Shown here piece by piece: positions 1,184 through 58,185 of a stretch of DNA of 64,000 bases; position 1 is the first letter of the stretch; each line of letters begins with the position of its first letter. The notes beneath the pieces are model-generated. The model was not told the origin of the DNA and searched no databases. It worked only from the letters and a program-made list of their open reading frames with translations. The translations under genes and the position numbers were made by a program. This stretch comes from a bacterium (GTDB lineage: Bacteria; Patescibacteriota; Minisyncoccia; Phycocordibacterales; UBA5272), in assembly GCA_023267535.1 (NCBI GenBank), contig JAHFNC010000004.1, forward strand, positions 3,757-67,756, in the 5' to 3' direction.

Positions 1184-2650
1184 ATGAGTAAATTTATGTT
1201 TGAACAAACTTTTAAGAATATAGACGACATCTTACATAAAGATGCAGGATGCGGAAGTGAGCTTGATTATGTTGAACAAACCTCATGGGTACTATTTTTG
1301 AAGTACCTCGATGATTTAGAGAAAGACAAGAAAACAGCGGCTGAACTTGCAGGAAAAAAGTACACCAACATCATATCTACTGAATACAGTTGGACTACGT
1401 GGGCTACACCAAAAGGTAAAGACGGAAAACTTGATCATCATAAAGCCTTAACTGGAGATGATTTAAAAGACTTTGTTGATCTTAAACTTTTTCCTTATCT
1501 TAAGAAATTTAAAACCACAGCTTTAAGTCCAGATACTATTGAATACAAGATTGGTGAGATTTTTTCTGAATTAAAAAATAGAATTCATAGTGGATATAAC
1601 TTACGTGAAGTTATTAATCGTATAGACGAGCTTCGTTTTCGTACTCATGCAGAAAAGCATGAAATGAGCCACTTGTATGAATCTAAAATACAGAACATGG
1701 GGAATGCTGGTCGTAATGGTGGTGAGTACTATACTCCAAGACCACTTATTACTACTATTGTTAAAGTGGTAGCTCCAAAAATTGGAGACACTATTTATGA
1801 TGGTGCAGTAGGTAGTGCAGGATTCTTATGTGAAGCTTTTGATTACCTAAAGAAGAGTAAAAACCTTACAACGAAAGATGTAGAAATTTTACAAAAGAAA
1901 ACTTTTTATGGAAAGGAAAAGAAATCATTAGCATATATTATCGGTACAATGAATATGATTTTACACGGTGTAGAAGCTCCTAATATTATCCATACCAACA
2001 CTCTTGCTGAAAATCTTGCAGATATACAAGAAAAAGATCGTTATAATGTTGTGTTGGCAAACCCACCATTTGGAGGAAAAGAACGAGTAGAGGTACAGCA
2101 GAACTTTCCAATTAAAACAGGAGAAACTGCTTCTCTTTTCTTACAACACTTTATTAAGATATTAAAAGCAGGAGGTAAAGGCGGTGTGGTTATAAAAAAT
2201 ACATTTCTTAGTAATACAGATAACGCTACGGTTAGTTTAAGAAAGTTACTTCTTGAGAATTGTAACCTACATACAGTATTAGACTTACCTGCTGGAACTT
2301 TTACAGGTGCCGGTGTCAAAACAGTCGTACTCTTTTTTGAAAAAGGGTCCTCTACGAAAAAAGTATGGTTCTATCAACTTAACTTAGACAGAAATCTCGG
2401 TAAAACAAATTCACTTAGCGAGAAAGATTTAGAAGATTTTATTAAACTTCAAAAGAATAAAGCAGAAAGTGAAAACTCTTGGAGTATAGATATAAAAAAC
2501 ATAGACCAAAAGACTTTTGATTTAAGTGCAAAGAACCCTAACAAAAAAGAAGAGGTTGCTTTGCGTTCCCCAGAAGAGATTTTGAAAGAGATGAAAGCTT
2601 TAGATAAGGAGAGTGAAAAGATATTAAGCGGTATTATTAAATTGATATGA
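1184..2650 (+). CDS. hsdM: Type I restriction-modification system, N6-adenine DNA methyltransferase subunit M
   Basis: 488 aa. HsdM N-terminal region, SAM-binding 'YDGAVGSAGFL', catalytic 'NPPFGG'. First gene of an M-X-S-R array. Confidence 0.95.
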   Translation: MSKFMFEQTFKNIDDILHKDAGCGSELDYVEQTSWVLFLKYLDDLEKDKKTAAELAGKKYTNIISTEYSWTTWATPKGKDGKLDHHKALTGDDLKDFVDLKLFPYLKKFKTTALSPDTIEYKIGEIFSELKNRIHSGYNLREVINRIDELRFRTHAEKHEMSHLYESKIQNMGNAGRNGGEYYTPRPLITTIVKVVAPKIGDTIYDGAVGSAGFLCEAFDYLKKSKNLTTKDVEILQKKTFYGKEKKSLAYIIGTMNMILHGVEAPNIIHTNTLAENLADIQEKDRYNVVLANPPFGGKERVEVQQNFPIKTGETASLFLQHFIKILKAGGKGGVVIKNTFLSNTDNATVSLRKLLLENCNLHTVLDLPAGTFTGAGVKTVVLFFEKGSSTKKVWFYQLNLDRNLGKTNSLSEKDLEDFIKLQKNKAESENSWSIDIKNIDQKTFDLSAKNPNKKEEVALRSPEEILKEMKALDKESEKILSGIIKLI

Positions 2651-3714
2651 ATGAAAAAAAAGAAGTAAAACATATTTTTATAGATTCGAATATTTTTTTA
2701 GATTTTTATAGATTAGGGAAAGAAGATTTAGAGAAACTTAATCAGTTGATTGACTTTGTTAAAAATGGTGATATTAAAATATATTTAACAAAACAGGTCT
2801 ACGATGAATTTTACAGACACAGAGAAGACACCTTTCAAAAAACATACAAAGGTTTTTTAGACTCAAAAACTGATATTCAGATGAATTCTATTTTTAAGAA
2901 TTATCCAGAATATAAAAAGATTACTCTTTTGAAAAAAGCTTTAGAGAAACTTAAGTCTGACTTAGGTCAAAAAGTAGAAAGTGACATGAGTTCAAAAAGT
3001 TTAATTGCGGATGAGGTTGTGAGAAAAATATTTGAAGCCTCTTTTTATATTGATTCGGATAAGTTTTTAGAAATGGCGATTATAAGACACAGACTTGGAA
3101 ATCCACCAGGTAAAAAAAATACTAGTTATGGAGATGAAATCAACTGGGAAACATTACTAAGTGTGGTTCCTGACGGAGAAAAACTAATAATAGTTAGTAA
3201 CGATGGAGATTACGAAAGTCCAATGTCAGAAAGAAAAATCAACGGCTATTTGGAAGCTGAATGGGATAAAAAAAAGAAATCAAAAATCTATTTATACAAG
3301 TCCCTAAGTTCATTTTTTAGAGAACACAACATTGCTATTGAGTTTGAAATTGAACAAGATAAAAGTTTACTTGTAGAAAATTTGATAAACAGTGGTAGTT
3401 TTATGGTAACTCACGAAGTTATAAGAAGGCTTTCAAAGTATAATTCATTTTCAGACGACCAAATAAAAGGTCTTGCTACAGCTTTACTAGGTAACTCGCA
3501 AGTACGGTCAATTATAGAAGATGATGATGTTAGAACTTTTTATAAAATAAACTTACTGTCTAGGTCTGATATTTTTGACGATGAAATGTGGAGTGAGATA
3601 GAGTCTCTTATTATAGTTAACCCAGTTCAGGTTAATAAAGATATTGAGGATATTATTAAAAGTCTTGATGATAAAATTGATGAAGATATCAATGTGGACG
3701 ACATTCCATTTTAA
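2647..3714 (+). CDS. PIN-like (DUF4935-type) putative nuclease embedded in the type I R-M operon
   Basis: 355 aa. ATG 2647-2649 overlaps the hsdM TGA 2648-2650. 'IFIDSNIFLDF', 'VYDEF', 'GNPPGKKNTSYGDEINWETLL' and 'IIVSNDGDY' give the acidic-residue pattern of PIN-like domains. The C-terminal ~150 aa are unassigned. Only 3 nt separate it from hsdS. Confidence 0.65.
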   Translation: MNEKKEVKHIFIDSNIFLDFYRLGKEDLEKLNQLIDFVKNGDIKIYLTKQVYDEFYRHREDTFQKTYKGFLDSKTDIQMNSIFKNYPEYKKITLLKKALEKLKSDLGQKVESDMSSKSLIADEVVRKIFEASFYIDSDKFLEMAIIRHRLGNPPGKKNTSYGDEINWETLLSVVPDGEKLIIVSNDGDYESPMSERKINGYLEAEWDKKKKSKIYLYKSLSSFFREHNIAIEFEIEQDKSLLVENLINSGSFMVTHEVIRRLSKYNSFSDDQIKGLATALLGNSQVRSIIEDDDVRTFYKINLLSRSDIFDDEMWSEIESLIIVNPVQVNKDIEDIIKSLDDKIDEDINVDDIPF

Positions 3715-3717
3715 TTT

Positions 3718-4839
3718 ATGAAAAAAGAAAACTGGGAAATAAAAAGTTTTGAAGAATGTCTTGAAAAAGTTGTTTATACAAACAAAATTCAAAGAAAAGA
3801 TTTTCTTGATAATGGAAAGCATCCAGTAATTTCACAAGAGAAAGATTTTGTTAATGGGTACTGGGATAATTCTAAAGATTTATTTAAGGTTAGAAAACCA
3901 GTTATAATTTTTGGTGATCATACACAAGTCTTAAAATATGTAGATTTTGATTTTGTTCTTGGTGCTGATGGTGTAAAAATACTTCAGCCTACAAGTGAGC
4001 TAGAACCAAGATTTTTTTACTATTATTTACAAAACATAAATATTGGTAGTTTAGGATACGCAAGACATTACAGATTATTAAAAGAGAGTGAAGTAGAATT
4101 TCCAAAGTCTCTTTTAGAACAGCAACGCATAGTGTCAGTTTTAGATAAAGCATTCGTTGATATATCTAAAGCAAAAGATATTGCTGAACAGAATCTTAAA
4201 AATGCAAAAGAACTTTTTGAAAGTTATTTACAGAGTATGTTTACAAATAAAGGAGATGATTGGGAAGAGAAAACATTAGGCGGTATTGCTTTTGTAAAAA
4301 GTGGAGGAACTCCTTCAAGGTCTAAAAAAGAATACTGGACAGGTAAAATAGCTTGGTATTCGTCGGGTGAATTAAATAATTTGTACACCACAACGCCAGA
4401 AAGATATATTAACGATTTAGCAATTAGTAACTCAAATGCAAAAATCTTTCCAAAAGGTTCTCTTTTAATAGGTATGTATGATACTGCGGCTCTAAAAATG
4501 TCTATATTAGACAGAGACGGTTCTTTTAATCAAGCTATTGCAGGTGTAAAACCTAATGACAAAATTGACTTAACTTTTATTTTACACTCTATCAACTCTA
4601 TCAAACCAGAATTACTTAATTTAAGACGTGGTGTTCGTCAGAAAAATCTAAGTCTTGAAAAGATAAAAAGTATCCCTACCTATGTTCCTCCACTTCAAGT
4701 ACAGAAGAATGTTGTTTCTAAATTAGGAGAACTTTCCACTGAAACAAAAAAACTTGAAGCAATCTATGAACAAAAATTAAATGACTTAGAAGAACTTAAG
4801 AAAAGTATTCTTCAAAAGGTATTTAACGGCGAACTATAA
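3718..4839 (+). CDS. hsdS: Type I restriction-modification system, specificity subunit S
   Basis: 373 aa. Two target-recognition halves, each followed by a conserved helical spacer ('LLEQQRIVSVLDKAF...' and 'LQVQKNVVSKLGEL...'). Confidence 0.9.
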   Translation: MKKENWEIKSFEECLEKVVYTNKIQRKDFLDNGKHPVISQEKDFVNGYWDNSKDLFKVRKPVIIFGDHTQVLKYVDFDFVLGADGVKILQPTSELEPRFFYYYLQNINIGSLGYARHYRLLKESEVEFPKSLLEQQRIVSVLDKAFVDISKAKDIAEQNLKNAKELFESYLQSMFTNKGDDWEEKTLGGIAFVKSGGTPSRSKKEYWTGKIAWYSSGELNNLYTTTPERYINDLAISNSNAKIFPKGSLLIGMYDTAALKMSILDRDGSFNQAIAGVKPNDKIDLTFILHSINSIKPELLNLRRGVRQKNLSLEKIKSIPTYVPPLQVQKNVVSKLGELSTETKKLEAIYEQKLNDLEELKKSILQKVFNGEL

Positions 4840-4860
4840 AAGTGCTATAATGTCAAGATT

Positions 4861-7182
4861 ATGAACGAATCTGAAACAAGGGCAGAGCTAATTGATCCAA
4901 AGCTAAAAGCTTGTGGTTGGGGTGTTGTTGAAGGATCTAAAATACTCCGTGAATACAATATTACTGCTGGTAAAATCCAAACTGGAGGTATAAGAGGAAA
5001 GCTACTTACTGCTGATTATGTATTGGTCTACAAAGGCATAAAATTGGCTGTGGTTGAGGCAAAGAGTGCAAATATAGGAGTTGGTGAGGGTGTTGCACAA
5101 GCCAAGCAATATGCAGAGAAACTAAAAATAGAAACAACCTATTCTACAAACGGAAAAGAGATATACAGTATCTGTATGAAAACTGGTGTTGAGGGTTTGG
5201 TTTCTGGTTATCTCTCACCTGATGAACTTTGGAACAAAACTTTTTCGGTTCAAAATGAATGGAGAGAGAAATTTAGTTCTATTCCTTTTGAAGATAAGAG
5301 TGGCTCTTGGCAATTACGTTATTATCAAGAAATAGCAGTAAAGAATGTTCTTGAATATGTTGCAAATGATAGGGACCGCATTTTGCTCACCTTAGCTACT
5401 GGTACAGGTAAAACAGCTATCGCTTTTCAGATAGTATGGAAACTATTTCAGACAAGATGGAATTTAAAACGTGACGGTTCTCGTCGTCCTCGTATTTTAT
5501 TTTTAGCAGATAGAAACATATTAGCCGACCAAGCATACAACTCTTTTTCTTCATTTCCAGAAGATGCTTTGGTGCGTATTAATCCTAAAGAAATAAGTAA
5601 GAAAGGAAGTGTGCCTACTAATGGGTCTATTTTCTTTACTATCTTTCAAACCTTTATGAGTGGTAAAGATGCCGAGGGAAACCCTGCACCATACTTCGGA
5701 GAATATCCATCTGATTACTTTGATTTTATTATTATAGACGAATGTCATCGTGGCGGTGCAAACGATGAAGGAAACTGGAGAGGTATCTTGGAATATTTTT
5801 CTCCTGCTGTGCAATTAGGTTTAACAGCTACCCCAAAGCGTAAAGATAATGTCGATACATATAAATATTTTGGTGAGCCAGTATATATTTATTCTCTTAA
5901 AGAGGGTATTAATGATGGATTTCTTACACCTTTTAAGGTTAAGCGTATTAAGACAACATTAGACGATTATATTTATACAAGTGATGACCAAATCATCGAA
6001 GGGGAAATCGAGGAAGGAAAACTTTATACCGAACCTGATTTTAATAAGATAATTGAAATTAAAGCGAGAGAAGAAAAGCGTGTGAAGGTATTTATGGACG
6101 AAGCAAATCAAAATGAAAAAGCTATTGTCTTTTGTGCTACTCAAGATCATGCGGCTGCGGTTCGTGATTTAATTAATCAATACAAGAAAAGTGCTGATCC
6201 AAATTATTGTGTCCGTGTTACAGCAAATGATGGAGAGATAGGCGAACAATTTTTAAGAGAATTCCAAGATAACGAAAAAACTATACCAACTATTTTAACG
6301 ACATCACAGAAACTTTCAACTGGAGTAGATGCTAGAAATATACGTAACATTGTACTCATGCGACCAGTGAACTCTATGATTGAATTTAAGCAAATTGTAG
6401 GGCGTGGTACACGTTTATTTGATGGTAAGGAATTCTTTACTATTTATGACTTTGTGGATGCTTATCACCATTTTGCGGATCCTGAATGGGATGGAGAACC
6501 GATCAGTCCAGTAGATGATGAACCTACGGAACCTAAACCACCAAAAGGGGTAGAGGGTGAACCACCTTTTCCTCCAGAACCACCAACAGAACCAAATAAG
6601 AAACTTAAGATTAAATTACGAGATGGAAAAGAACGTGAAATACAACACATGATAGCAACTTCTTTTTGGGGTGCAGACGGTAAACCTATTTCTGTGGAAG
6701 AGTTTTTACAAAACCTGTTTGGGACACTGCCTAGTCTTTTTAAGGGTGAAGAAGAGTTGCGAGAGATATGGAGTAATCCAATAACAAGAAAAAGTTTGTT
6801 AGAAAAACTAGACGAGGCTGGGTATGGAAAAGACGAACTAACTACATTACAGAAATTAATTGACGCTGAAAATAGTGATCTTTTTGATGTGTTGGAATAT
6901 GTATTTAATAGTGACGTTAAACCGATACCAAGAGAGATAAGAGTAGAAACATCACAGGAAACTATTTTTGAATCCCTTAATGATAAACAAAAAGAATTTA
7001 TTGAATTTGTGTTGAGTAAATATATTGAAACAGGTGTAGAAGAATTAGACCAAGAGAAACTACCAATACTTCTTACTAATAAATATCAGTCGCTAGAAGA
7101 TGCAAAAGATACACTAGGTGATATTGATTTGATTCGTTCGATTTTCTTCAAATTCCAAGAGAAACTATACGCAAAAGTATAA
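4861..7182 (+). CDS. hsdR: Type I restriction enzyme, R (helicase/endonuclease) subunit, EcoEI-R-like
   Basis: 773 aa. N-terminal 'SETRAELIDPKL..GW' region. SF2 motifs 'LATGTGKT', 'IIIDECHRG', 'LGLTATP', 'QIVGRGTR'. Pro-rich linker, then a C-terminal domain resembling the EcoEI R C-terminus ('DLFDVLEYVF...'). Confidence 0.93.
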   Translation: MNESETRAELIDPKLKACGWGVVEGSKILREYNITAGKIQTGGIRGKLLTADYVLVYKGIKLAVVEAKSANIGVGEGVAQAKQYAEKLKIETTYSTNGKEIYSICMKTGVEGLVSGYLSPDELWNKTFSVQNEWREKFSSIPFEDKSGSWQLRYYQEIAVKNVLEYVANDRDRILLTLATGTGKTAIAFQIVWKLFQTRWNLKRDGSRRPRILFLADRNILADQAYNSFSSFPEDALVRINPKEISKKGSVPTNGSIFFTIFQTFMSGKDAEGNPAPYFGEYPSDYFDFIIIDECHRGGANDEGNWRGILEYFSPAVQLGLTATPKRKDNVDTYKYFGEPVYIYSLKEGINDGFLTPFKVKRIKTTLDDYIYTSDDQIIEGEIEEGKLYTEPDFNKIIEIKAREEKRVKVFMDEANQNEKAIVFCATQDHAAAVRDLINQYKKSADPNYCVRVTANDGEIGEQFLREFQDNEKTIPTILTTSQKLSTGVDARNIRNIVLMRPVNSMIEFKQIVGRGTRLFDGKEFFTIYDFVDAYHHFADPEWDGEPISPVDDEPTEPKPPKGVEGEPPFPPEPPTEPNKKLKIKLRDGKEREIQHMIATSFWGADGKPISVEEFLQNLFGTLPSLFKGEEELREIWSNPITRKSLLEKLDEAGYGKDELTTLQKLIDAENSDLFDVLEYVFNSDVKPIPREIRVETSQETIFESLNDKQKEFIEFVLSKYIETGVEELDQEKLPILLTNKYQSLEDAKDTLGDIDLIRSIFFKFQEKLYAKV

Positions 7183-7200
7183 TTTTTCTTACTCAAAAAG

Positions 7201-9744
7201 TTAGATCATTCTTTTCTTTATGTTTCGTACAAGATCAGTGATTTCTTTCTTTGCAATATCAGGGATTTTAAATATAGAAACATCAGTTTTTAATAACCAT
7301 TCGGCACATTCCTTTCTATCATAATCCATACTTTCAATGTGGTTAGAAATTTCAATGGCTGTATGTCTACTTAGTCCGAGATTGATAAGAGAAACTTGGG
7401 TCCTTTCAAATACCCCAAACTCGAGCCACATATTTAAATCAGGGACGGAATCAAGAAACTCAGGGTGATTCATACTAAGATAATACTTTAAAATATCAAT
7501 ATAACATGAAGAATACTTTGCAAATTTAAACCTAACATATTCTTCTATATCCCCCATTGTGTTTCTGATAATTAGTGAAAGCTTTTTCTTGGGATCTCTA
7601 TTCTCCCAGTACCTAATATTAGACTTTATTATTCTAGCAAGTGGATATCCTCTCATCCAATTAGTTACTAGAATGGTGTAGTAAGGTGCGAGCGCTTCGT
7701 GGTCCCCAGAAAGAATTCTACTTATTCTTTTTATAATTGCTATGTAGCAATTAGACGCATCTAAATCGTCAGGTAAAACAGGAATTAGGTTTTTTATGTC
7801 ATCATCATAATTTACAAAATAATCAAAGAGTTTTTGTTGAGATATGGGGTTTATACCGGGATTTCTAAAAATTATATCATCTGGTATTTGAAGTGACTCT
7901 TTTACTTTTGAACACTCTACCTCAAGTTCATTAATGAAATCTTCGTCAAGAGGTTCATTTTTTAAGGAAGAGTTTTTAAGGAATTTTGTGAAATAATAAC
8001 TAAAAGCATATTCATGGTTAGAGCTAGAAGTTTCTTTAAAGTTACCTCTTATGTATTCAAGAAGATCAGTTTTATTTTCTGAAGCTTCAGTGATTGCTCT
8101 CTTAATAAAGTGCTTTGTTTTTTCTCTGATAGGTATATTATCCCAATCTTCAGGATCAATACATATAATATTTCCTTGAAATTCCTTTTTTAGGCGACCA
8201 GCTCGACCAGCGAGATTCCAAAAATCAGCTCCTGACATCGGTACTTTATTTCCTCTTTTTGGTTTTCTTATAAAAATTGATTTTGCTGGAAGGTTAACTC
8301 CTTCGAGAAGGGTTGAAGTACATACTAAGTATTTAATATGACCCTCAGAATATAATCTTTCAATTTCTTTTCTAATAACAAGTGGCATGTTGCCGTAATG
8401 AAAAGCAATCTTTCTTTCTAGAACTTTAGCTAAAGCATATTCTGGATGAATTAATTTCTTTATTAAATCAATCAATTCATTTATTTGATCATCTTCTGTT
8501 TCCTCTTTAGTTCCGACAAGATCAAAAAGTTTTTCTGAAGCATCTTCAGCATCTGCTTGTCCATTTACATATATCATGTTGCCACCTTCATTTGAACCAA
8601 GTAAGTAGCAAAAAGTAGACAGTTTTTCTTTTTCGTTTAAAGTTTGATTTAAGTTAATTTGCCCCAGTGGAGTAGATATATTTTTTAGACATAGGTTTAC
8701 GCTCCACTGCTTAGGGTGCCCCACTAATTGTGATACCCAAATTAAATTTTGATTTACGGCAATATATTCAGTAACTATAGTAGACCTATCTTCCTGGTTA
8801 CCTAAGCCATCCAGTAGAACCCCAGGGTTTTGAGAGAATGGACTACAGAATAGTATTTTTATGGCTGGTAGTCGAGTTGTAAGCTCTTCAATTTTTTGTT
8901 GTAAAAGAATACCTCTACCACCATCTCCAATTTTTTGAGCTTCGTCAATGACAAGAAAATCAATCTTAAAAGTGGGATTGTCACTTAGAAACCAATGTAA
9001 TCTTTCTTGCGTAAATATAAATAGAGATGGTTTGTTTAAGTCCATTTCATCAGGTGACTGAGGTACAGAACTTAGGTAAACAGAATAGTCTTCCTTATTA
9101 AACAATTGATCAGAAAAATCTTGCTCTACTTGATTGATAAGTGCTCTGGTAGGGACTATGTAGACAATATTTTTTGGATTCTTTTTGTCGTTTAGTTGCT
9201 CTAAAACAAAAGTATTTAGAATAAATGATTTTCCAGAAGAGGTTGGAGCAGAAGCACTTAAATAGTTTGAACTGTATGCTTTATCGTAAAAGTCTTTTTG
9301 AAATTTATTAAGATATATTGGCTCTTCATTTGTTTTTGTAAAAATGATATGTTCCACATCTCTTCTTGCATTTTCAATTTTAAAAGGTAACGGTATATCA
9401 TTATCGTAATCTGAAGGTAGATATTTCTTATGGATAGCAAGATTAATAGCTGGTTTGTTTGTTAACTTATGCAAAATGATAGATGCTCCAATTCTTTGGT
9501 TCTTCTTTGTTTCTGCATCTGTTAAACAACACTGGGCAATCCTTAATGCTGCATCTTGACAATCTGGGTTATCTGAATGTGATATTATACTTGCACACAT
9601 TAATAAATGATCCCAGTTTGGTATGTAAAATAAGTCAGATTGTTGATTTAAAATTGGGAAAAGTTTTATTACCGAATTTCTAATAATAGATAATAGGTCT
9701 TGTTGAAAGCTTTTTAAGTTATAAACTTTTTCAGGAAGGGTCAT
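7201..9744 (-). CDS. hamB: HamB-like SF2 (DEAQ-box) helicase, Hachiman-type defence
   Basis: 847 aa. Walker A 'SAPTSSGKSF', 'LVIDEAQK', 'CTSTLLEGVNLPA', 'LAGRAGR'. Its start overlaps the upstream DUF1837-like gene by 14 nt. Confidence 0.8.
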   Translation of the reverse strand: MTLPEKVYNLKSFQQDLLSIIRNSVIKLFPILNQQSDLFYIPNWDHLLMCASIISHSDNPDCQDAALRIAQCCLTDAETKKNQRIGASIILHKLTNKPAINLAIHKKYLPSDYDNDIPLPFKIENARRDVEHIIFTKTNEEPIYLNKFQKDFYDKAYSSNYLSASAPTSSGKSFILNTFVLEQLNDKKNPKNIVYIVPTRALINQVEQDFSDQLFNKEDYSVYLSSVPQSPDEMDLNKPSLFIFTQERLHWFLSDNPTFKIDFLVIDEAQKIGDGGRGILLQQKIEELTTRLPAIKILFCSPFSQNPGVLLDGLGNQEDRSTIVTEYIAVNQNLIWVSQLVGHPKQWSVNLCLKNISTPLGQINLNQTLNEKEKLSTFCYLLGSNEGGNMIYVNGQADAEDASEKLFDLVGTKEETEDDQINELIDLIKKLIHPEYALAKVLERKIAFHYGNMPLVIRKEIERLYSEGHIKYLVCTSTLLEGVNLPAKSIFIRKPKRGNKVPMSGADFWNLAGRAGRLKKEFQGNIICIDPEDWDNIPIREKTKHFIKRAITEASENKTDLLEYIRGNFKETSSSNHEYAFSYYFTKFLKNSSLKNEPLDEDFINELEVECSKVKESLQIPDDIIFRNPGINPISQQKLFDYFVNYDDDIKNLIPVLPDDLDASNCYIAIIKRISRILSGDHEALAPYYTILVTNWMRGYPLARIIKSNIRYWENRDPKKKLSLIIRNTMGDIEEYVRFKFAKYSSCYIDILKYYLSMNHPEFLDSVPDLNMWLEFGVFERTQVSLINLGLSRHTAIEISNHIESMDYDRKECAEWLLKTDVSIFKIPDIAKKEITDLVRNIKKRMI

Positions 9745-10714
9745 AGGTTATCCCAAGTGCCTCCAAGAAGTGCTTTCTAAACTCTTCCACAGAAGGAAAT
9801 GGAAGCAGAAAAACATGTATATCAAAAGTTTCAAGATTTGTATGTTTTGAAATATGTTTGACAACATTTTTTGACCAACCTTCTATTTCTTTGTTAATCT
9901 TTTCTTTTATTTGTTCAGTGGTTTCTGTGTTTGCAACGCTTGGGTATTTATCATAATCAAATCCAATGAGGCACACACCTTTATACCTTACCTGATTATG
10001 GAGAGGGTCGTCTTTGTCCAAATATTTTAATAGAGCAACTTCCAATCTCTCATCTATTACACTCAAGTTGTCCCTCATTAATTGTAAGTCTCTTTCTGCT
10101 GGAGCAGATATTCCTCCATCTGATAAAAGAAACTCTTTAAGACTTATGAAACATTTAGAGATGCCATCGTTTAAATCTTTGTACAGTTTTGATTCACCCC
10201 AATATAAAGATAGAATATCCCTTCCTTCTTCATTTAACTCCACAGAAACATGAATACCATCAGCTCCGTTCACATGGAGTTCTGGGTTTGTTTTTAATGG
10301 CATCTTACATAGTAGTTGGGGAATTTTTAGATACTCCTGAATAAGAATATAGAGAAGCATTTCACCACCTTCACCTGTCTTCTTTAGTGAAGTAAAAAGA
10401 CTTTTTGCTTTTTCAATAAGCTCGTAAGTTTTTGTGGTTGTGTTATGTTTTGTATCATATTCTTTTGCCACCTCATATTCTTTTCTTGGAATTGCATAAT
10501 CAGCTACATGCTTTGCCACAAAACGTGCAAAGTCCTTAGTGCGAGGTCTACCATTTCCGTCTAAAGTTAAAAAGTAACAATGTGAGGTTGCTTTAGTATC
10601 TTTTAAATTAACATTTGATATAACTTCAGTTATATAAGTATTTATTTCTTGTTTGCTTGTTCTCAGAAGATCAGCAATAAGTTCTGCAATATTATCTTGG
10701 TTAGCAGTAGTCAT
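9731..10714 (-). CDS. hamA: DUF1837 / HamA-like PD-(D/E)xK nuclease, Hachiman-type defence
   Basis: 327 aa. 'GEGGEMLLYIL' and 'NGADGIHV...(21 aa)...YWGESKLY' (D152...E174-x-K176), as I recall for DUF1837. Coupled to the helicase gene. Confidence 0.72.
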   Translation of the reverse strand: MTTANQDNIAELIADLLRTSKQEINTYITEVISNVNLKDTKATSHCYFLTLDGNGRPRTKDFARFVAKHVADYAIPRKEYEVAKEYDTKHNTTTKTYELIEKAKSLFTSLKKTGEGGEMLLYILIQEYLKIPQLLCKMPLKTNPELHVNGADGIHVSVELNEEGRDILSLYWGESKLYKDLNDGISKCFISLKEFLLSDGGISAPAERDLQLMRDNLSVIDERLEVALLKYLDKDDPLHNQVRYKGVCLIGFDYDKYPSVANTETTEQIKEKINKEIEGWSKNVVKHISKHTNLETFDIHVFLLPFPSVEEFRKHFLEALGITYDPS

Positions 10715-19564: not shown

Positions 19565-20269
19565 ATGAAGAAAATTCAAGACGACATAATTAGCTACAGA
19601 GAGATGTGTGATATAGAAAATGTTCAAACACTTCAGCGTGGAATGAATTTTCGTATGAACCAAAAATACTCCGTCATATTAATGTCCCAAAGATCAAACG
19701 CTCCATATATTGATAAGGTTCATGCGGATGGTTTAACTATTGAATATGAGGGACACGACGTCTCCAGAATTACAAATGAGCCCGCCTATAATCCAAAGCA
19801 ATATGATCAATCAGAGAAATTACCGAGCGGGAAATTAACACAAAATGGATTTTTTATAAAAGCTGTAAAAGAATTTAAAAAAAGTATGGCTAATCCAGAG
19901 CTTGTTAAAATTTATGAAAAAGTTTTTCCTGGTGTTTGGTCTTTGAAAGGCTATTTTGATCTCATTGATTACAGAAATGTTAGAGATGAAAAAAGAAATG
20001 TGTTTCGCTTTATTCTGAAATTATCAAATCGTCAAGAAAATTATGATTCAAAGGTTGCGAAAATTGAACACACAAGATTGATTCCGTCAGAAGTAAAAAG
20101 AGAGGTTTGGAAACGAGATGATGGAAAGTGTGTTATTTGTGGAGATACAAAAAATTTACACTTTGACCACGATCTTCCTTTTTCAAAAGGGGGCACAAGT
20201 TTATCAACAAAAAATGTGCGCTTACTTTGTATGAGACATAATCTTCAAAAATCAGATAAGATAATTTAG
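19565..20269 (+). CDS. HNH endonuclease with N-terminal SRA/YDG-like domain (candidate type IV modification-dependent restriction enzyme)
   Basis: The C-terminal HNH is clear: 'CVICGDTKNLHFDHDLPFSKGG...NVRLLCMRHNLQKSD'. The N-terminal 'LQRGMNF...SVILMS...APYIDKVHADGLTIEYEGHD...VKIYEKV..GVWSLKGYFDLIDY' resembles SRA-type base-flipping domains. Confidence 0.6.
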   Translation: MKKIQDDIISYREMCDIENVQTLQRGMNFRMNQKYSVILMSQRSNAPYIDKVHADGLTIEYEGHDVSRITNEPAYNPKQYDQSEKLPSGKLTQNGFFIKAVKEFKKSMANPELVKIYEKVFPGVWSLKGYFDLIDYRNVRDEKRNVFRFILKLSNRQENYDSKVAKIEHTRLIPSEVKREVWKRDDGKCVICGDTKNLHFDHDLPFSKGGTSLSTKNVRLLCMRHNLQKSDKII

Positions 20270-20278
20270 TATTTCTAC

Positions 20279-20325
20279 TTATCCACAGTTGTTCTATTGC
20301 AGTAGAACAATCGTTCTAATATACT
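20279..20325 (+). promoter_or_regulatory. lexA promoter with SOS box and upstream DnaA-box-like element
   Basis: TTGCAG (20297-20302), 17 nt, TATACT (20320-20325). The spacer holds TAGAAC-AATC-GTTCTA (20303-20318), a GAAC-N4-GTTC box. Second palindrome TTGTTCTA-N6-TAGAACAA at 20289-20310. TTATCCACA at 20279-20287. Confidence 0.6.
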
Positions 20326-20331
20326 GAATTG

Positions 20332-20895
20332 ATGAATGAGGAAGAAATTTTAATATCATTTTTTACGGAAAATAAAAGAATGCCAACATACGAAGAGATG
20401 AAAGGTCTCTTCGGTGTGGCTTCAAAAAACACTGTGGCTTTCAGAGTAAATAAATTATTAGAAAATGGTTTCTTGATTAAGAAAGGAAGTAAAATTGCTC
20501 TTGCTCAATCTGGCTCAGTTGTGAGATTGGGAACTGTTCAAGCTGGATTTCCAACTACTGCAGACGAAGATGTCGTATCCGAGTTATTATCACTTGATGA
20601 TTTTTTAATAGAAAGAAAGAGTTCAACATATATGTTGGAAGTGGTTGGTGAATCAATGAAAGATGCCGGAATAATTGAAGGCGACTTGGTTTTAGTAGAA
20701 AGAGGAAAGACTCCACGTCGTGGAGATATAGTTCTAGCACTTGTTGATAATGAATACACGCTGAAATATTTAGAAACAGAAAAAGGAAAACCAGTGCTTG
20801 TGCCAGCCAATAAATTATTTAAGAAAATCTATCCAAACCCAAACAAATTAAAAATCGAAGCAGTTTTAAAAGCAGTAATTAGAAAATATAGATAA
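20332..20895 (+). CDS. lexA: LexA repressor (S24 peptidase)
   Basis: wHTH N-terminus, cleavage-site region 'VQAGFP', catalytic Ser context 'VVGESMKDAG' and Lys context 'EYTLKYL'. Confidence 0.9.
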   Translation: MNEEEILISFFTENKRMPTYEEMKGLFGVASKNTVAFRVNKLLENGFLIKKGSKIALAQSGSVVRLGTVQAGFPTTADEDVVSELLSLDDFLIERKSSTYMLEVVGESMKDAGIIEGDLVLVERGKTPRRGDIVLALVDNEYTLKYLETEKGKPVLVPANKLFKKIYPNPNKLKIEAVLKAVIRKYR

Positions 20896-20899
20896 ACAT

Positions 20900-21477
20900 A
20901 TGAAATTATTTAACATCACAATTACAATACAGAGCTCCATAAAAAACGACGAGCCAGTTTACAAAAATGAACTAATAAGTAGACACATTAATTTCGCTTC
21001 AAAACTTACTCAACTTTCTAGATTATAAATAACTATTTCAAATATATGTCACCATCACCACGCGCCATAATACAAATAAGCACAACAGGAAAGAATTTTT
21101 CTCGTATAAATTATAGTCGTCGCATGTATGCCGTCATTAGACGTTATACACCGGACGTGGCTGAGGGTAATATAAATGAATGCTTTGCTGATATAACCGG
21201 ACTTCGCACTTTCTTTAAAATGTCATACAAAGAATTGGCAGAAAAAATTCTTAAAGATTTAAATAAAGAAATTGGTGTGCAATTTACAATCAGAATTACT
21301 TCAATGAAAGCCTTTCAAAATGCAAAAACTAACAGTAGAAACTCCAAGAGTATTTCTACTTACAAAGAATTAAACAAACTTTTTGCCGGACTATCATTTG
21401 TTGAAGCCAAAAATCGTAAAAGCTTAATTAGTAGAAGAAGAAAATTTGCCGTACCATTTATTGGTAAGGTTGCATAA
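20900..21477 (+). pseudogene. decayed Y-family DNA polymerase (DinB/UmuC-like) relic
   Basis: Two frames. 20900-21028: 'LFNITITIQSSIKNDEPVYKNE', compare '..IDMD.FFASVE....P.L.gk'. 21046-21477: 'YSRRMYAVIRRYTPDVAEGNINECFADITGL', compare 'Y...S..i..i...yt..vE..SiDEafLDvTg'. Has a frameshift, internal deletions, a missing thumb/little finger, and substituted catalytic acids. Confidence 0.65.
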
Positions 21478-55214: not shown

Positions 55215-55875
55215 AATTTTGTAATCCCTTTTGAAAGGATGTTAATTCTTCTTCTGAGTAAGTAATCTTATTTTTAAATTGTGGGTTTAGAATTTTAGTT
55301 GAAACAAATTTTTGTAAATAATATTTTTTTGCACCCCTTATTTCTTCCCCTATTTCTAAAACATCAGATTCCGATACTAAAGATTTAATAAGAGTTGTTC
55401 TAAATTCATAATCTATAGGCGATGACAAAAGTAAATCAATACTTTGTCGTATTTTCTCGATATCGACCGGACGAGAAACAGTTTGGCTATATTTTGAAAG
55501 TGGAGATTTTATATCCATAGCAATATAATCAACAACACCTTCACTTATAGCTTTTTTAAGAACACTCGGATTTGTACCGTTTGAATCAAGCTTTACCAAA
55601 AATCCTAATTCTTTTATTTTTTTAATAAATGAAATTAAATCATTGTGCATTGTCGGTTCACCGCCGGTTATAACCACACCATCTAACAACCCAACTCTCG
55701 TTTTTAAAAAATCCATTACTTCTTCTTCGTTTATTCTAGTTTCCACTGTCTCATCGACCAATTCTGGATTATGACAATAAGGACAACGGAAGTTACATCC
55801 AATGGTGTATAAAATACAAGCTGTTTTTCCTGGATAATCAATTAGAGTAAATTTTTCTAATCCTCCGAATATCAT
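55189..55875 (-). CDS. nrdG: anaerobic ribonucleotide reductase activating enzyme (radical SAM)
   Basis: 'CNFRCPYCHN' and 'VVITGGEP'. ATGA overlap with nrdD. Confidence 0.92.
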   Translation of the reverse strand: MIFGGLEKFTLIDYPGKTACILYTIGCNFRCPYCHNPELVDETVETRINEEEVMDFLKTRVGLLDGVVITGGEPTMHNDLISFIKKIKELGFLVKLDSNGTNPSVLKKAISEGVVDYIAMDIKSPLSKYSQTVSRPVDIEKIRQSIDLLLSSPIDYEFRTTLIKSLVSESDVLEIGEEIRGAKKYYLQKFVSTKILNPQFKNKITYSEEELTSFQKGLQNYVKYCGIR

Positions 55876-58037
55876 TTTTGAATTACTAATGGAGACTCTA
55901 TTAATTTTGACTCAATAATATTGTGCTCATACATTTCTCGGCAATCAAATTCAGCTCGTTTACCTTCATTCCATTGACTCACTGGACGAATATAACCCAC
56001 TATTCTTGAATAAACTTCGCATTCATTATTGCAAGTTGGACATAAATGTTTTTCACCATTTATATACCCATGAGAAGGACAGACGCTGAAAGTTGGGGTT
56101 AGCGTAAAGTATGGCAATTTAAAATTCTCACAAATCTTTTTGACAAGCACAGGAACAGATGATGGGTCAGCAACTCTTTCTCCTAAGAAAAGATGCATAA
56201 CTGTTCCACCGGTGTATTTTGTTTGCAAACCATCTTGAATTTCTAAAGTTTCAAAAATATCTTTTGAAAAATTAACTGGTAAATGAGAAGAATTAGTGTA
56301 ATAAGGATTGGCTTTTTTATTATTATAATCGTCTTCATTAGCAACAAGTATGTCAGGGAAAGCTTTTTTGTCATTTAATGCAAAACGATAGGCAGTCCCC
56401 TCTCCTGGTGTTGCTTCTAGATTAAATAAATTATCTGTCTCTTTTTGATATTGCACTAATCTTTCACGCATAAAATCCAATACGTCTGAAGCAAAAGCTC
56501 TCCCTTTTACAGTACCAATATTTTCTCCAAGTAAATTAAGAGAAGCTTCGTTGGTTCCAATCAAGCCAATGGTAGAGAAATGATTTTTCCAATATTCACC
56601 ATAGGACTCTTTTATTTTTCTTAAATAGAATTTTGTATATGGATATAGATTGGCGTTAGTTAATCTTTCTAACATTTTTCTTTTAATCTCCAAGCTTTCT
56701 TTGGCAATATCCATTTGCAAAGCCAGCGAGTCGTAAAATTCTTTTTTAGCTTTTCTTATGTCTTTCGGAAATTTCTTGCTAGCTTTGTAAGCAAGACGTG
56801 GAAGATTTATGGTTACCACACCAACTGAGCCAGTTAAAGCGTTTGCACCAAACAATCCTCCTCCACGCCTATCTAATTCAGCGACGTCTAATCTCAAACG
56901 ACAACACATTGATCTTGTGTCTTCCGGCTTCATATCTGAACTAACAAAATTACTAAAATACGGAATACCATATTTAGCAGTTATTTCCCAAAGACCTTTT
57001 AGGTTAGGATTATTCCATTCAAAATCTTTGGTGACATTCACTGTTGGAATTGGAAAAGTAAAGACTCTACCTGAGGCGTCCCCTTCATACATAACTTCAA
57101 AGAGAGCTTTGTTAAACATGTTCATCTCTCTTTGAAATTCTTTGTATGTTTCAACTTGAGGTTTACCGCCGATAATTACCTTTGTGTCTTTAAAATTTGC
57201 CGAGGGTGTTAAATCAAGAGTGATGTTTGAAAATGGAGTTTGAAATCCAACTCTGGTTGGTACATTCATATTAAAGATGAATTCTTGAAGCCCTTGCTTA
57301 ACCTCATCAAAGGTAAGTCCATCATAACGAATAAACGGTGCAAGAAGTGTATCAAAATTAGAAAAAGCAATGGCGCCAGCTGCCTCACCTTGAAGCGTGT
57401 ACATAAAGTTGACTGCTTGCCCCAAAGCGGTGCGAAAATGCTTAGGAGGGGCAGATTCTACCTTACCAACTACCCCCTTGAACCCTTCAGTAAGTAAATC
57501 CATTAAATCCCAACCAACACAGTAAACAGAAATAAGACCTAAATCGTGAATATGTATATCTGTTTTCTCATAGGCATCTCTTATTTCCTTGGGATATATC
57601 TTATTTAACCAGTAAGTCTTACTAATTTCACCAAAAACATAGTTATTTAACCCTTGCAAGGAATATTCCATGTTACTGTTTTCTTTCACTTGCCAATCAC
57701 TTCTATCCAAATAATTATCAACCATGCCAAGTGACATAGAAGTAGCAAAAGCGCGAAGTTCAGCATGTTGCTTTCTGTATAGAATATAGGCTTTAGCTGT
57801 TTCTTTGTATTGAGAACGCATCAAAACTAACTCCACCACATCTTGAATATCTTCAACAGTTGGCTCGTTTCCGACTATATTTTTGTCCACTATAGAAATA
57901 ACCTTTTTTGATAGTATTTCTGCCTCCTTCGCATCAAATTCTCCAGTAGCTTTACCTGCTTTGACTATTGCTATGGTAATTTTTTTATAGTCAAAGGCTA
58001 CTTTGGCACCATTTCTTTTGATAATGAATTTTGGCAT
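55872..58037 (-). CDS. nrdD: anaerobic ribonucleoside-triphosphate reductase (class III)
   Basis: N-terminal ATP-cone, C-terminal Zn site 'CPSHG...CPTC' and glycyl-radical motif 'RIVGYIRP'. Confidence 0.96.
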   Translation of the reverse strand: MPKFIIKRNGAKVAFDYKKITIAIVKAGKATGEFDAKEAEILSKKVISIVDKNIVGNEPTVEDIQDVVELVLMRSQYKETAKAYILYRKQHAELRAFATSMSLGMVDNYLDRSDWQVKENSNMEYSLQGLNNYVFGEISKTYWLNKIYPKEIRDAYEKTDIHIHDLGLISVYCVGWDLMDLLTEGFKGVVGKVESAPPKHFRTALGQAVNFMYTLQGEAAGAIAFSNFDTLLAPFIRYDGLTFDEVKQGLQEFIFNMNVPTRVGFQTPFSNITLDLTPSANFKDTKVIIGGKPQVETYKEFQREMNMFNKALFEVMYEGDASGRVFTFPIPTVNVTKDFEWNNPNLKGLWEITAKYGIPYFSNFVSSDMKPEDTRSMCCRLRLDVAELDRRGGGLFGANALTGSVGVVTINLPRLAYKASKKFPKDIRKAKKEFYDSLALQMDIAKESLEIKRKMLERLTNANLYPYTKFYLRKIKESYGEYWKNHFSTIGLIGTNEASLNLLGENIGTVKGRAFASDVLDFMRERLVQYQKETDNLFNLEATPGEGTAYRFALNDKKAFPDILVANEDDYNNKKANPYYTNSSHLPVNFSKDIFETLEIQDGLQTKYTGGTVMHLFLGERVADPSSVPVLVKKICENFKLPYFTLTPTFSVCPSHGYINGEKHLCPTCNNECEVYSRIVGYIRPVSQWNEGKRAEFDCREMYEHNIIESKLIESPLVIQK

Positions 58038-58078: not shown

Positions 58079-58185
58079 ATCTTAAGCCCTGTTGATAAGA
58101 TGCGCAATAGAACAACTGTGGATATAAAAAGTCCTTATTTTACAAGGTTTTTTTGGAAAATAAAATATTTTAGTTATCCACAGTT
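58079..58185 (-). promoter_or_regulatory. nrdD promoter region with three DnaA-box-like elements and the 20-mer shared with lexA
   Basis: On the minus strand: TTGCGC (58107-58102), 17 nt, TAAGAT (58084-58079). TTATCAACA (58098-58090) sits in the spacer. ATATCCACA at 58125-58117. TTATCCACA on the plus strand at 58174-58182. 58104-58123 is the exact reverse complement of 20281-20300. Confidence 0.55.

Follow-up and report, generated by a model that had tools for sequence, protein, structure and literature searches.

A predicted LexA operator, a helically phased candidate DnaA box, and a lone upstream half-site at the lexA promoter of a Paceibacteria bacterium

Introduction

In Firmicutes and Actinobacteria, the repressor LexA controls its own gene through a short palindrome, GAAC-N4-GTTC (the Cheo box), that lies at the promoters of lexA and recA, and a comparable motif is said to have been reported for Patescibacteria. 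LexA sites may also come in tandem, as they do in the two SOS boxes of Escherichia coli lexA and in the operators of colicin genes. In this paper, we have tried to read one such promoter closely: positions 20279-20331 of a 64-kb stretch of DNA (64,000 nucleotides, the whole of what was analyzed, called “the window” below), which precede the lexA gene of a Paceibacteria bacterium (Patescibacteria, or the candidate phyla radiation) with a tiny genome.

Two lines of published work come closest to what is found at this locus. The lexA promoters of Verrucomicrobia commonly carry TGTTC-N4-GAACA accompanied by a degenerate second site of which one arm is kept, and where such tandem sites were tested, binding was cooperative (PMC4951493). 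In E. coli, the nrd genes (nrdAB) and dnaA are classic targets of regulation by DnaA (PMC8203912), and three further genes, uvrB, recN, and dinJ, answer jointly to DnaA and LexA (PMC6015884).

How does the Paceibacteria promoter compare? Its SOS box is routine, and the self-repression of lexA that it implies is strongly supported by comparison across species. What is less routine lies just upstream, where a lone copy of one operator arm abuts the -35 hexamer and where a DnaA box keeps to one face of the helix. A limited literature search turned up no description of a DnaA box in front of lexA; as far as that search reached, such a phased box before the gene of the SOS repressor is an unreported wiring of known parts.

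The Operator and Its Gene

An earlier, sequence-only reading had noticed that the palindrome TAGAAC-AATC-GTTCTA (TAGAACAATCGTTCTA, 20303-20318; coordinates are those of the + strand unless another is given) fills the spacer between TTGCAG (20297-20302) and TATACT (20320-20325). On direct reading this is exact to the base: the 17-nt spacer is the 16-nt palindrome plus one A (20319), and within it sits the Cheo-type core GAAC-N4-GTTC (GAACAATCGTTC, 20305-20316). The predicted binding site for LexA would thus run from -29 to -14 relative to the start site proposed below, with GAATTG filling the distance from the -10 hexamer to the ATG at 20332. Such a place in the spacer is the classical geometry of steric repression.

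Is one palindrome in 64 kb worth anything? The bare core occurs once in the window against 0.89 expected, a count that is not significant alone. What decides is the comparative evidence. The full TAGAAC-N4-GTTCTA also occurs once, against none in 100 shuffles. The window holds no second GAAC-N4-GTTC, its one-mismatch versions of that core are fewer than chance would give (12 vs. 20.6 expected), and the 16-mers that differ from the operator at two positions are all intragenic.

For the comparison, a scan of one genome per species yielded 49 loci encoding LexA relatives (numbered here with the prefix L); 41 of them, with proteins 55–83% identical, make up with the window a set of 42 alignable promoters, and the counts of sites cover 433 kb of related loci and the window. 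None of the 12 arm positions of TAGAAC-N4-GTTCTA varies among the 42 promoters, and the palindrome never moves, standing 3 nt after TTG and 1 nt before TAnncT in every one. Variation is free in the N4 spacer, in the three bases that follow TTG, and upstream of about -60. The 433 kb hold 55 sites of the form GAAC-N4-GTTC, 49 of which lie directly upstream of lexA orthologues; of the other six, none of them in a promoter, five fall within long open reading frames (ORFs), and the last (L018, position 7604) is near the end of its locus. One of the five, at position 40 of L008, had looked like an intergenic second site and was rejected when it proved to lie inside a UvrD-like helicase gene truncated by the locus end. 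Among the 49 are sites before more distant lexA genes, in Absconditabacterales/Peribacteria (AAGAACATATGTTCTT) and in Chloroflexi.

That the palindrome is a cis-element of lexA's own regulation is a conclusion as strong as sequence evidence gets, and TAGAAC-N4-GTTCTA is very probably the LexA operator. The classical Gram-positive autoregulatory arrangement that had been read from a single promoter now extends, with an invariant operator fixed in the spacer, to all 42 species in which lexA promoters were compared. Self-repression of lexA through a Gram-positive-type SOS box, itself an arrangement of a known kind, is on these grounds strongly supported.

The gene (lexA, 20332-20895, within an ORF that spans 20329-20895) encodes a 187-aa protein with a winged helix-turn-helix (wHTH) and an S24 self-cleaving repressor domain. 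A Pfam search placed Peptidase_S24 over residues 68-179 (E=3.6e-24) and returned no LexA_DNA_bind match for the protein. The TIGR00498 lexA model aligned end to end (positions 16-202 of 203, 98.8 bits), and phmmer aligned residues 13-183 with residues 21-196 of E. coli LexA, helices 2-3 of the wHTH included. A71-G72 (in VQAGFP), S108 (GESM), and K145 (TLKY) are invariant in 18 of 18 homologues and align with the cleavage site (A84-G85) and Ser/Lys dyad (S119 and K156) of E. coli LexA. The S24 domain, the end-to-end LexA alignment, and the cleavage site with its dyad bear out the earlier identification of the product as a LexA-type repressor. As a separate observation, the cleavage region, VQAGFPTTADEDV, resembles that of UmuD, CGFPSPAADYVE.

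More than 1,200 database clusters match the protein, and the best 120 are all at least 78% identical to it; in the sources that give a family name, the name is LexA, from Paceibacterota/Patescibacteria genomes. A database copy that is 100% identical and most of the listed homologues have the same length of 187 aa, that is, a start at ATG 20332. The genomic setting is a housekeeping one (rmuC, rplU, recR, and ychF).

The Core Promoter

TTGCAG agrees with the -35 consensus at three of six positions, and a simple promoter scan did not call the lexA promoter. Its conserved part is TTG alone, which is invariant in 42 of 42 promoters and always 17 nt upstream of the -10 hexamer; the -10 consensus among orthologues, TAnncT, is likewise invariant or nearly so. 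Between the end of the -10 hexamer and the ATG there are 6 nt in 28 promoters and 7 nt in the other 14, a distance that leaves no space for a Shine-Dalgarno sequence. Could translation begin farther downstream? This is unlikely because conservation extends over the first 16 LexA residues, the counterpart of helix 1 in the LexA fold. As far as spacing and conservation can tell, the lexA mRNA is probably leaderless, starting at A20332 or 1 nt before it.

The Candidate DnaA Box

Upstream of the core promoter, at 20279-20287 (about -53 to -45), stands TTATCCACA, an exact instance of the DnaA-box consensus TTATNCACA, 9 nt from the -35 hexamer. A match to that consensus with at most one mismatch is found in 41 of the 42 lexA promoters, in a single orientation; 30 of the 41 are exact, and 11 have one mismatch. 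The variation falls mostly at the degenerate fifth (N) position, where C becomes A, and TTATACACA occurs in six species. On both strands of the 433 kb, exact TTATCCACA is found 33 times, 27 of them at lexA promoters. The gene upstream of lexA varies in identity and strand from locus to locus, and the box must therefore belong to lexA.

The distances are more telling than the counts. From the box to TTG there are 8-10 nt in 24 promoters and 18-20 nt in 15, with a gap of -1 in the remaining 2; gaps of 0-7 or 11-17 nt do not occur. Promoters of the 9-nt and 19-nt classes are intermingled on the LexA tree (L001 vs. L009, L004 vs. L008, and L039/L041 vs. L040/L042), which means that the spacing has jumped by one helical turn (10 bp) at least six times independently. 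Phasing of this kind is, to judge by the gaps, the signature of a protein held on a fixed face of the DNA relative to RNA polymerase, and in combination with the weak -35 hexamer, it suggests activation and not occlusion. The pattern points to a direct input of DnaA into lexA (and nrdD, discussed below), and we consider it likely that 20279-20287 is a functional DnaA site. The sequence-only reading had raised a second regulator as one explanation for its overlapping palindrome. A second regulator is indeed indicated, by the DnaA box, which that reading had not recognized although the first of its coordinates falls on it, and not by the palindrome.

A tblastn search found no dnaA/oriC in the fetched DNA. 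By eye, the region could also be read as an integration host factor-like site, TATCCA-N4-TTR; this candidate was discarded because promoters of the 19-nt spacing class do not retain its 3' part.

The Upstream Half-Site

A single G (20288) separates the DnaA box from TTGTTCTA (20289-20296), the perfect reverse complement of TAGAACAA, which lies 6 nt away on the other side of the -35 hexamer. Within this arm, TGTTCTA (20290-20296, -42 to -36; GTTCTA itself from -41 to -36) is the right arm of the operator over again, and it abuts the -35 hexamer. The three half-sites that had been described, in the order GTTCTA-N6-TAGAAC-N4-GTTCTA, are indeed present, and selection acts on the upstream one in a clade of 27 species. 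In these, GTTCTA (usually TGTTCTA) is invariant, and a neighbor-joining tree of LexA proteins places the 27 carriers among the 42 promoters in a single derived clade, within which the element was lost two or three times (L027; L030/L031). The distance from half-site to operator is invariant, and TGTTCTA matches the consensus of the operator arm with its family-specific TA flank included.

The overlapping palindrome that had been proposed fares only partly so well. The pairing of TTGTTCTA with TAGAACAA is exact, as claimed, but of the 8-nt arm only 6-7 nt are conserved. The flanking pairs are complementary to the inner bases of the operator in 19 of 27 and 8 of 27 promoters, where about 20 and 6 would be expected; at this chance level, the eighth pair in the window is fortuitous.

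Might the overlapping palindromes instead be alternative hairpins, for example a terminator or attenuator of the HNH gene that lies upstream? The upstream pair does fold as RNA (-10.3 kcal/mol, z = -2.2). It is followed by no U-tract, however, and was not called by a terminator scan; no covariation is seen in its flanking pairs; Rfam has no match to it; the upstream gene changes identity and strand among loci, whereas the elements stay fixed relative to lexA; and the proposed transcript start lies downstream of both palindromes. We rejected the hairpin, terminator, or RNA-motif reading, which we regard as hardly credible, and take the lack of flank covariation and the weak hairpin without a U-tract, upstream of the start, to mean that the conserved arm is a selected DNA site.

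Two side observations concern the same sequence elsewhere. Many promoters of the 19-nt class (L005, L006, L009, L013, L016, and L019, at about 3945-3960) show a DnaA box, AAGAA(A/T), 8-9 nt, and then GTTCTA, as in CCACAAGAAAATTTTCTTGTTCTA; this stretch is a partly palindromic A/T tract that may act as a bend or a weak site. In a metagenome contig (L052, 155-179), two inverted DnaA-box-like 8-mers surround GTTCTA: TATCCACA-TATGTTCTAT-TGTGGATA.

The nrdD Promoter

The window contains a second promoter with much the same upstream half. The gene nrdD (anaerobic ribonucleotide reductase, 55872-58037, - strand) is preceded by a promoter (58079-58125, - strand) that has a lexA-like upstream module and no SOS box. 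Read on the - strand from 58125 to 58102, it consists of ATATCCACA-G-TTGTTCTA-TTGCGC, or ATATCCACAGTTGTTCTATTGCGC, and 21 consecutive bases, TATCCACAGTTGTTCTATTGC, are identical at nrdD and lexA. Its 17-nt spacer contains a one-mismatch DnaA box, TTATCAACA (58098 to 58090), and its -10 hexamer is TAAGAT (58084 to 58079). A second exact DnaA box lies inverted (58174-58182, + strand), 48 nt upstream of the box in the promoter.

How far does this module reach? A relative at 90% identity (L055) and a near-identical strain (L062) keep it, without GAAC-N4-GTTC, and both also keep the inverted box at its 48-nt spacing; the one-mismatch box in the spacer is conserved in L055 as well. It was not found at more distant nrdD promoters, including L056, which comes from the same genome as L020, where lexA has the half-site. 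In another of the more distant nrdD promoters (L057), TTATCCACT precedes the -35 hexamer by 11 nt. A metagenome-wide scan for DnaA box + GTTCTA + TTG without an SOS box gave five hits. Three, in high-GC or non-promoter contexts, have the look of chance; a fourth is a DnaA-box palindrome, and the fifth, which precedes a DUF2177 gene on a metagenome contig (L050), is a plausible promoter. With one convincing promoter among five hits, the idea of a widespread module was dropped. It may be that, in this lineage, the upstream half of the lexA promoter was copied to nrdD not long ago, and it may also be that the half-site works without an operator, so that it is not simply LexA's.

Apart from these boxes, the L057 contig, which is from a distant member of the Patescibacteria, carries a near-consensus SOS box, GGAACATATGTTGT, at about 590-610, some 150 nt upstream of nrdD (840). 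This hints that LexA controls nrd in some lineages.

Weighing the Readings

We arrive at a composite picture of the lexA promoter: LexA autorepression, a leaderless start, phased DnaA input, and an auxiliary LexA half-site. On the evidence of sequence and conservation, the picture as a whole seems to us more probable than its competitors and somewhat likely to be right. An auxiliary LexA half-site is our preferred reading of TGTTCTA and is also the least certain step; that LexA binds there is a possibility that we put a little short of an even call.

What counts against the composite picture is best set down in one place. On the side of the repressor, the protein, at 98.8 bits, misses the TIGR00498 equivalog cut-off of 110.95, and PDB searches put its C-terminal domain nearer to UmuD (8gmt and 1umu) than to any LexA. 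About 74 kb of genome (the window and beyond its ends, with L062 and L063) contain no further SOS box, which leaves any wider regulon conjectural. On the side of the DNA, calling TTATCCACA a DnaA box relies on a near-universal consensus that may not be that of the host lineage. Basal lineages that lack the half-site have TTCTC, TTTTC, or TTTCC in its place and keep the operator all the same; a partner arm for the half-site at N4 spacing is not to be found, for the sequence at that place agrees with TAGAAC at 0-3 of 6 positions whichever of the 42 promoters is taken; and the TATCCACAGTTGTTCTATTGC block stands at the head of the nrdD promoter, which offers a first dimer no operator. These facts bear on two neighboring ideas as well. 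A second full operator upstream was rejected on the arm matches, which leave a lone half-site only, and nothing speaks in favor of the two alternative LexA dimer registers suggested by the sequence-only reading: the half-site is absent from basal lineages with the same operator and present at the operator-less nrdD promoter.

Do the points about the repressor call for a different protein altogether? One could suppose an S24 repressor of the UmuD/HumD or phage type, local in reach and confined to its own small operon (the repressor gene and remnants of a translesion polymerase), with the palindrome as its private operator. The best PDB and NCBIfam matches of the C-terminal domain are of the UmuD type (the UmuD subfamily model scores slightly higher than the LexA model, over that domain only), the LexA score is below the cut-off, the genes downstream are relatives of Y-family polymerases, and 433 kb of flanking DNA yielded no second intergenic site. 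Against this, each fetched locus, over 42 species, has a single gene of this kind, set among housekeeping genes (recR, rplU, and ychF); several sources name the protein LexA, and it aligns with LexA over its full length, wHTH included; and the same GAAC-N4-GTTC stands upstream of lexA in other Patescibacteria and in Chloroflexi. The lack of further sites says little because the sampled flanks are without classical SOS genes, and the 74 kb of this genome likewise contain no recA, uvrA, uvrB, or dinB. We find a private repressor improbable and keep to LexA.

The points about the DNA lead to a more serious competitor, in which (T)GTTCTA has nothing to do with LexA. It would belong, together with the DnaA box and TTG, to one module and would resemble an operator arm by chance, serving as an extended -35 element, as an activator dock, or as the site of an unidentified factor that works with DnaA. 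This would explain why 21 nt are identical at lexA and nrdD and are kept at nrdD in L055 and L062 without GAAC-N4-GTTC. The DUF2177 promoter would be a further plausible instance, and the basal TTCTC and TTTTC suggest a pyrimidine-rich element next to the -35 hexamer that was sharpened later. Yet the 7-mer is exactly the family-specific operator arm, which would have to be a coincidence if the factor were unrelated; the nrdD module is limited to very close relatives, is absent from the nrdD of L056, and may be a recent copy of the lexA promoter; and three of the five metagenome hits without an SOS box resemble chance. We judge a LexA-independent module, and with it these several roles, rather unlikely, though far from negligible, and continue to prefer an auxiliary LexA half-site.

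Neighboring Genes

Downstream of lexA, after 150 nt, comes a 143-aa ORF (21046-21477, + strand) that looks like a truncated Y-family polymerase: its Pfam IMS match covers model positions 74-136 only, and the catalytic Asp of SIDEAF is Asn (NINECF). It is probably in the lexA operon. In 32 of the fetched loci (at about 4600-5260 in L001-L031), lexA is followed by full-length homologues that are 42-67% identical, and such conservation over the whole length in some 32 species rules out a decaying pseudogene. The family is lineage-restricted, with about 15-20 short full-length representatives in a protein library clustered at 50%; weaker matches are mostly polymerases of 400-440 aa, or fragments of them, and match residues of about 22-100 only. 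In basal relatives, a complete Y-family polymerase follows lexA directly (L033) or comes after the short polymerase-like gene (L003). A lexA gene with a polymerase-like partner fits an SOS-type lexA-translesion operon.

The gap between the two genes (20896-21045, 150 nt) is unusually long for a compact genome and has no Rfam match. It includes a weakly conserved ORF of 42 aa (20900-21028; also in L010 and L018) that might be a remnant of a polymerase N-terminus.

On the other side, directly upstream of the lexA promoter, a 234-aa protein (19565-20269, + strand) has a C-terminal HNH nuclease motif, with weak matches to Pfam HNH and to an IscB-like NCBIfam model, and an N-terminal domain with no family assignment; it is not kept at this position in relatives. 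Farther away, at 1184-10714, lies a defense-type island. It begins with type I restriction-modification (HsdM at 1184-2650, HsdS at 3718-4839, and HsdR at 4861-7182, with a PIN-domain gene inserted at 2647-3714) and goes on to a Hachiman-like pair (a DEAD-box helicase at 7201-9744 and HamA at 9731-10714).

Discussion

How might such a promoter work? A LexA dimer on TAGAAC-N4-GTTCTA would occupy the whole spacer between -35 and -10 and would exclude RNA polymerase, so that LexA represses its own synthesis. When DNA is damaged, RecA would be expected to stimulate cleavage at Ala71-Gly72 by Ser108 and Lys145, as the sequence and its conservation imply, and repression would be lifted. Transcription would then start at the A of ATG 20332 or 1 nt before it and would give a leaderless mRNA. 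DnaA on its phased box would most likely touch RNA polymerase and would probably activate a promoter whose -35 hexamer is weak; through this contact, the status of replication would be fed into the synthesis of LexA, and the same logic would apply at nrdD. TGTTCTA would be an addition specific to one clade, where a second LexA dimer may bind cooperatively. Its center would lie 22 bp from that of the operator, or about two helical turns, so that both dimers would be on the same face; the second would cover the -35 hexamer, and repression would be tightened.

A bolder form of this idea, which we put forward only tentatively, is that DnaA is hard-wired through the phased box into both the lexA and nrdD promoters and that the half-site is a snapshot of the evolution of the LexA motif, maybe even a place where DnaA and LexA dock together. 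If this is true, then replication status and DNA-damage signaling converge on one leaderless promoter, and the half-site is a mirror-image TGTTC...GAACA arising beside GAAC...GTTC, as the tandem-site model predicts.

Why should any of this matter? The SOS box by itself is routine, and it confirms that uncultured bacteria with reduced genomes keep a self-repressed LexA and an ancestral motif of the Gram-positive type. The new point is that sequence alone can reveal regulatory wiring in organisms beyond the reach of culture. Here, it suggests that DnaA, among the few transcription factors that these genomes retain, directly tunes the SOS repressor. The spacings of -1, 9, and 19 nt form a natural series of variants for the contact between DnaA and RNA polymerase, and a lone conserved half-site offers models of LexA-motif evolution a small, clean data point.

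We close by setting this promoter beside the systems with which we began. With LexA autoregulation of the Cheo type, it shares the core palindrome with its 4-nt spacer, an operator placed over the core promoter of lexA, and a self-cleaving repressor built of a wHTH and an S24 domain with the Ala-Gly site and Ser/Lys dyad. It differs in having arms extended to TAGAAC and GTTCTA that are wholly invariant, a promoter that is apparently leaderless, and a short repressor (187 aa) with a UmuD-like C-terminal domain and a score below the TIGR00498 cut-off.

Among the tandem and degenerate LexA arrangements already documented, the lone half-site counts as a variant. As in those, a strong operator has an adjacent one-armed element at a fixed short distance, and the half-sites here form a mirror-image TGTTC...GAACA beside GAAC...GTTC. 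Unlike those, the extra arm is set off by 6 nt, on the far side of the -35 hexamer, the mirror pair is separated by N10 and not by N4, and the arrangement is confined to a single clade; moreover, in the 9-nt class the place of the missing partner arm is taken by the DnaA box.

With the joint control of E. coli genes by DnaA and LexA, the promoter has in common a consensus DnaA box near a LexA operator, and the DnaA boxes that precede a ribonucleotide reductase gene elsewhere in this genome recall the control of nrd by DnaA. What sets it apart from uvrB, recN, and dinJ is that the target is lexA itself and that a single box, upstream of the -35 hexamer, keeps 10-bp phasing over some 40 species. 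Where DnaA and LexA meet at uvrBp3, repression is competitive; the geometry here suggests instead a face-specific contact and, with it, activation.

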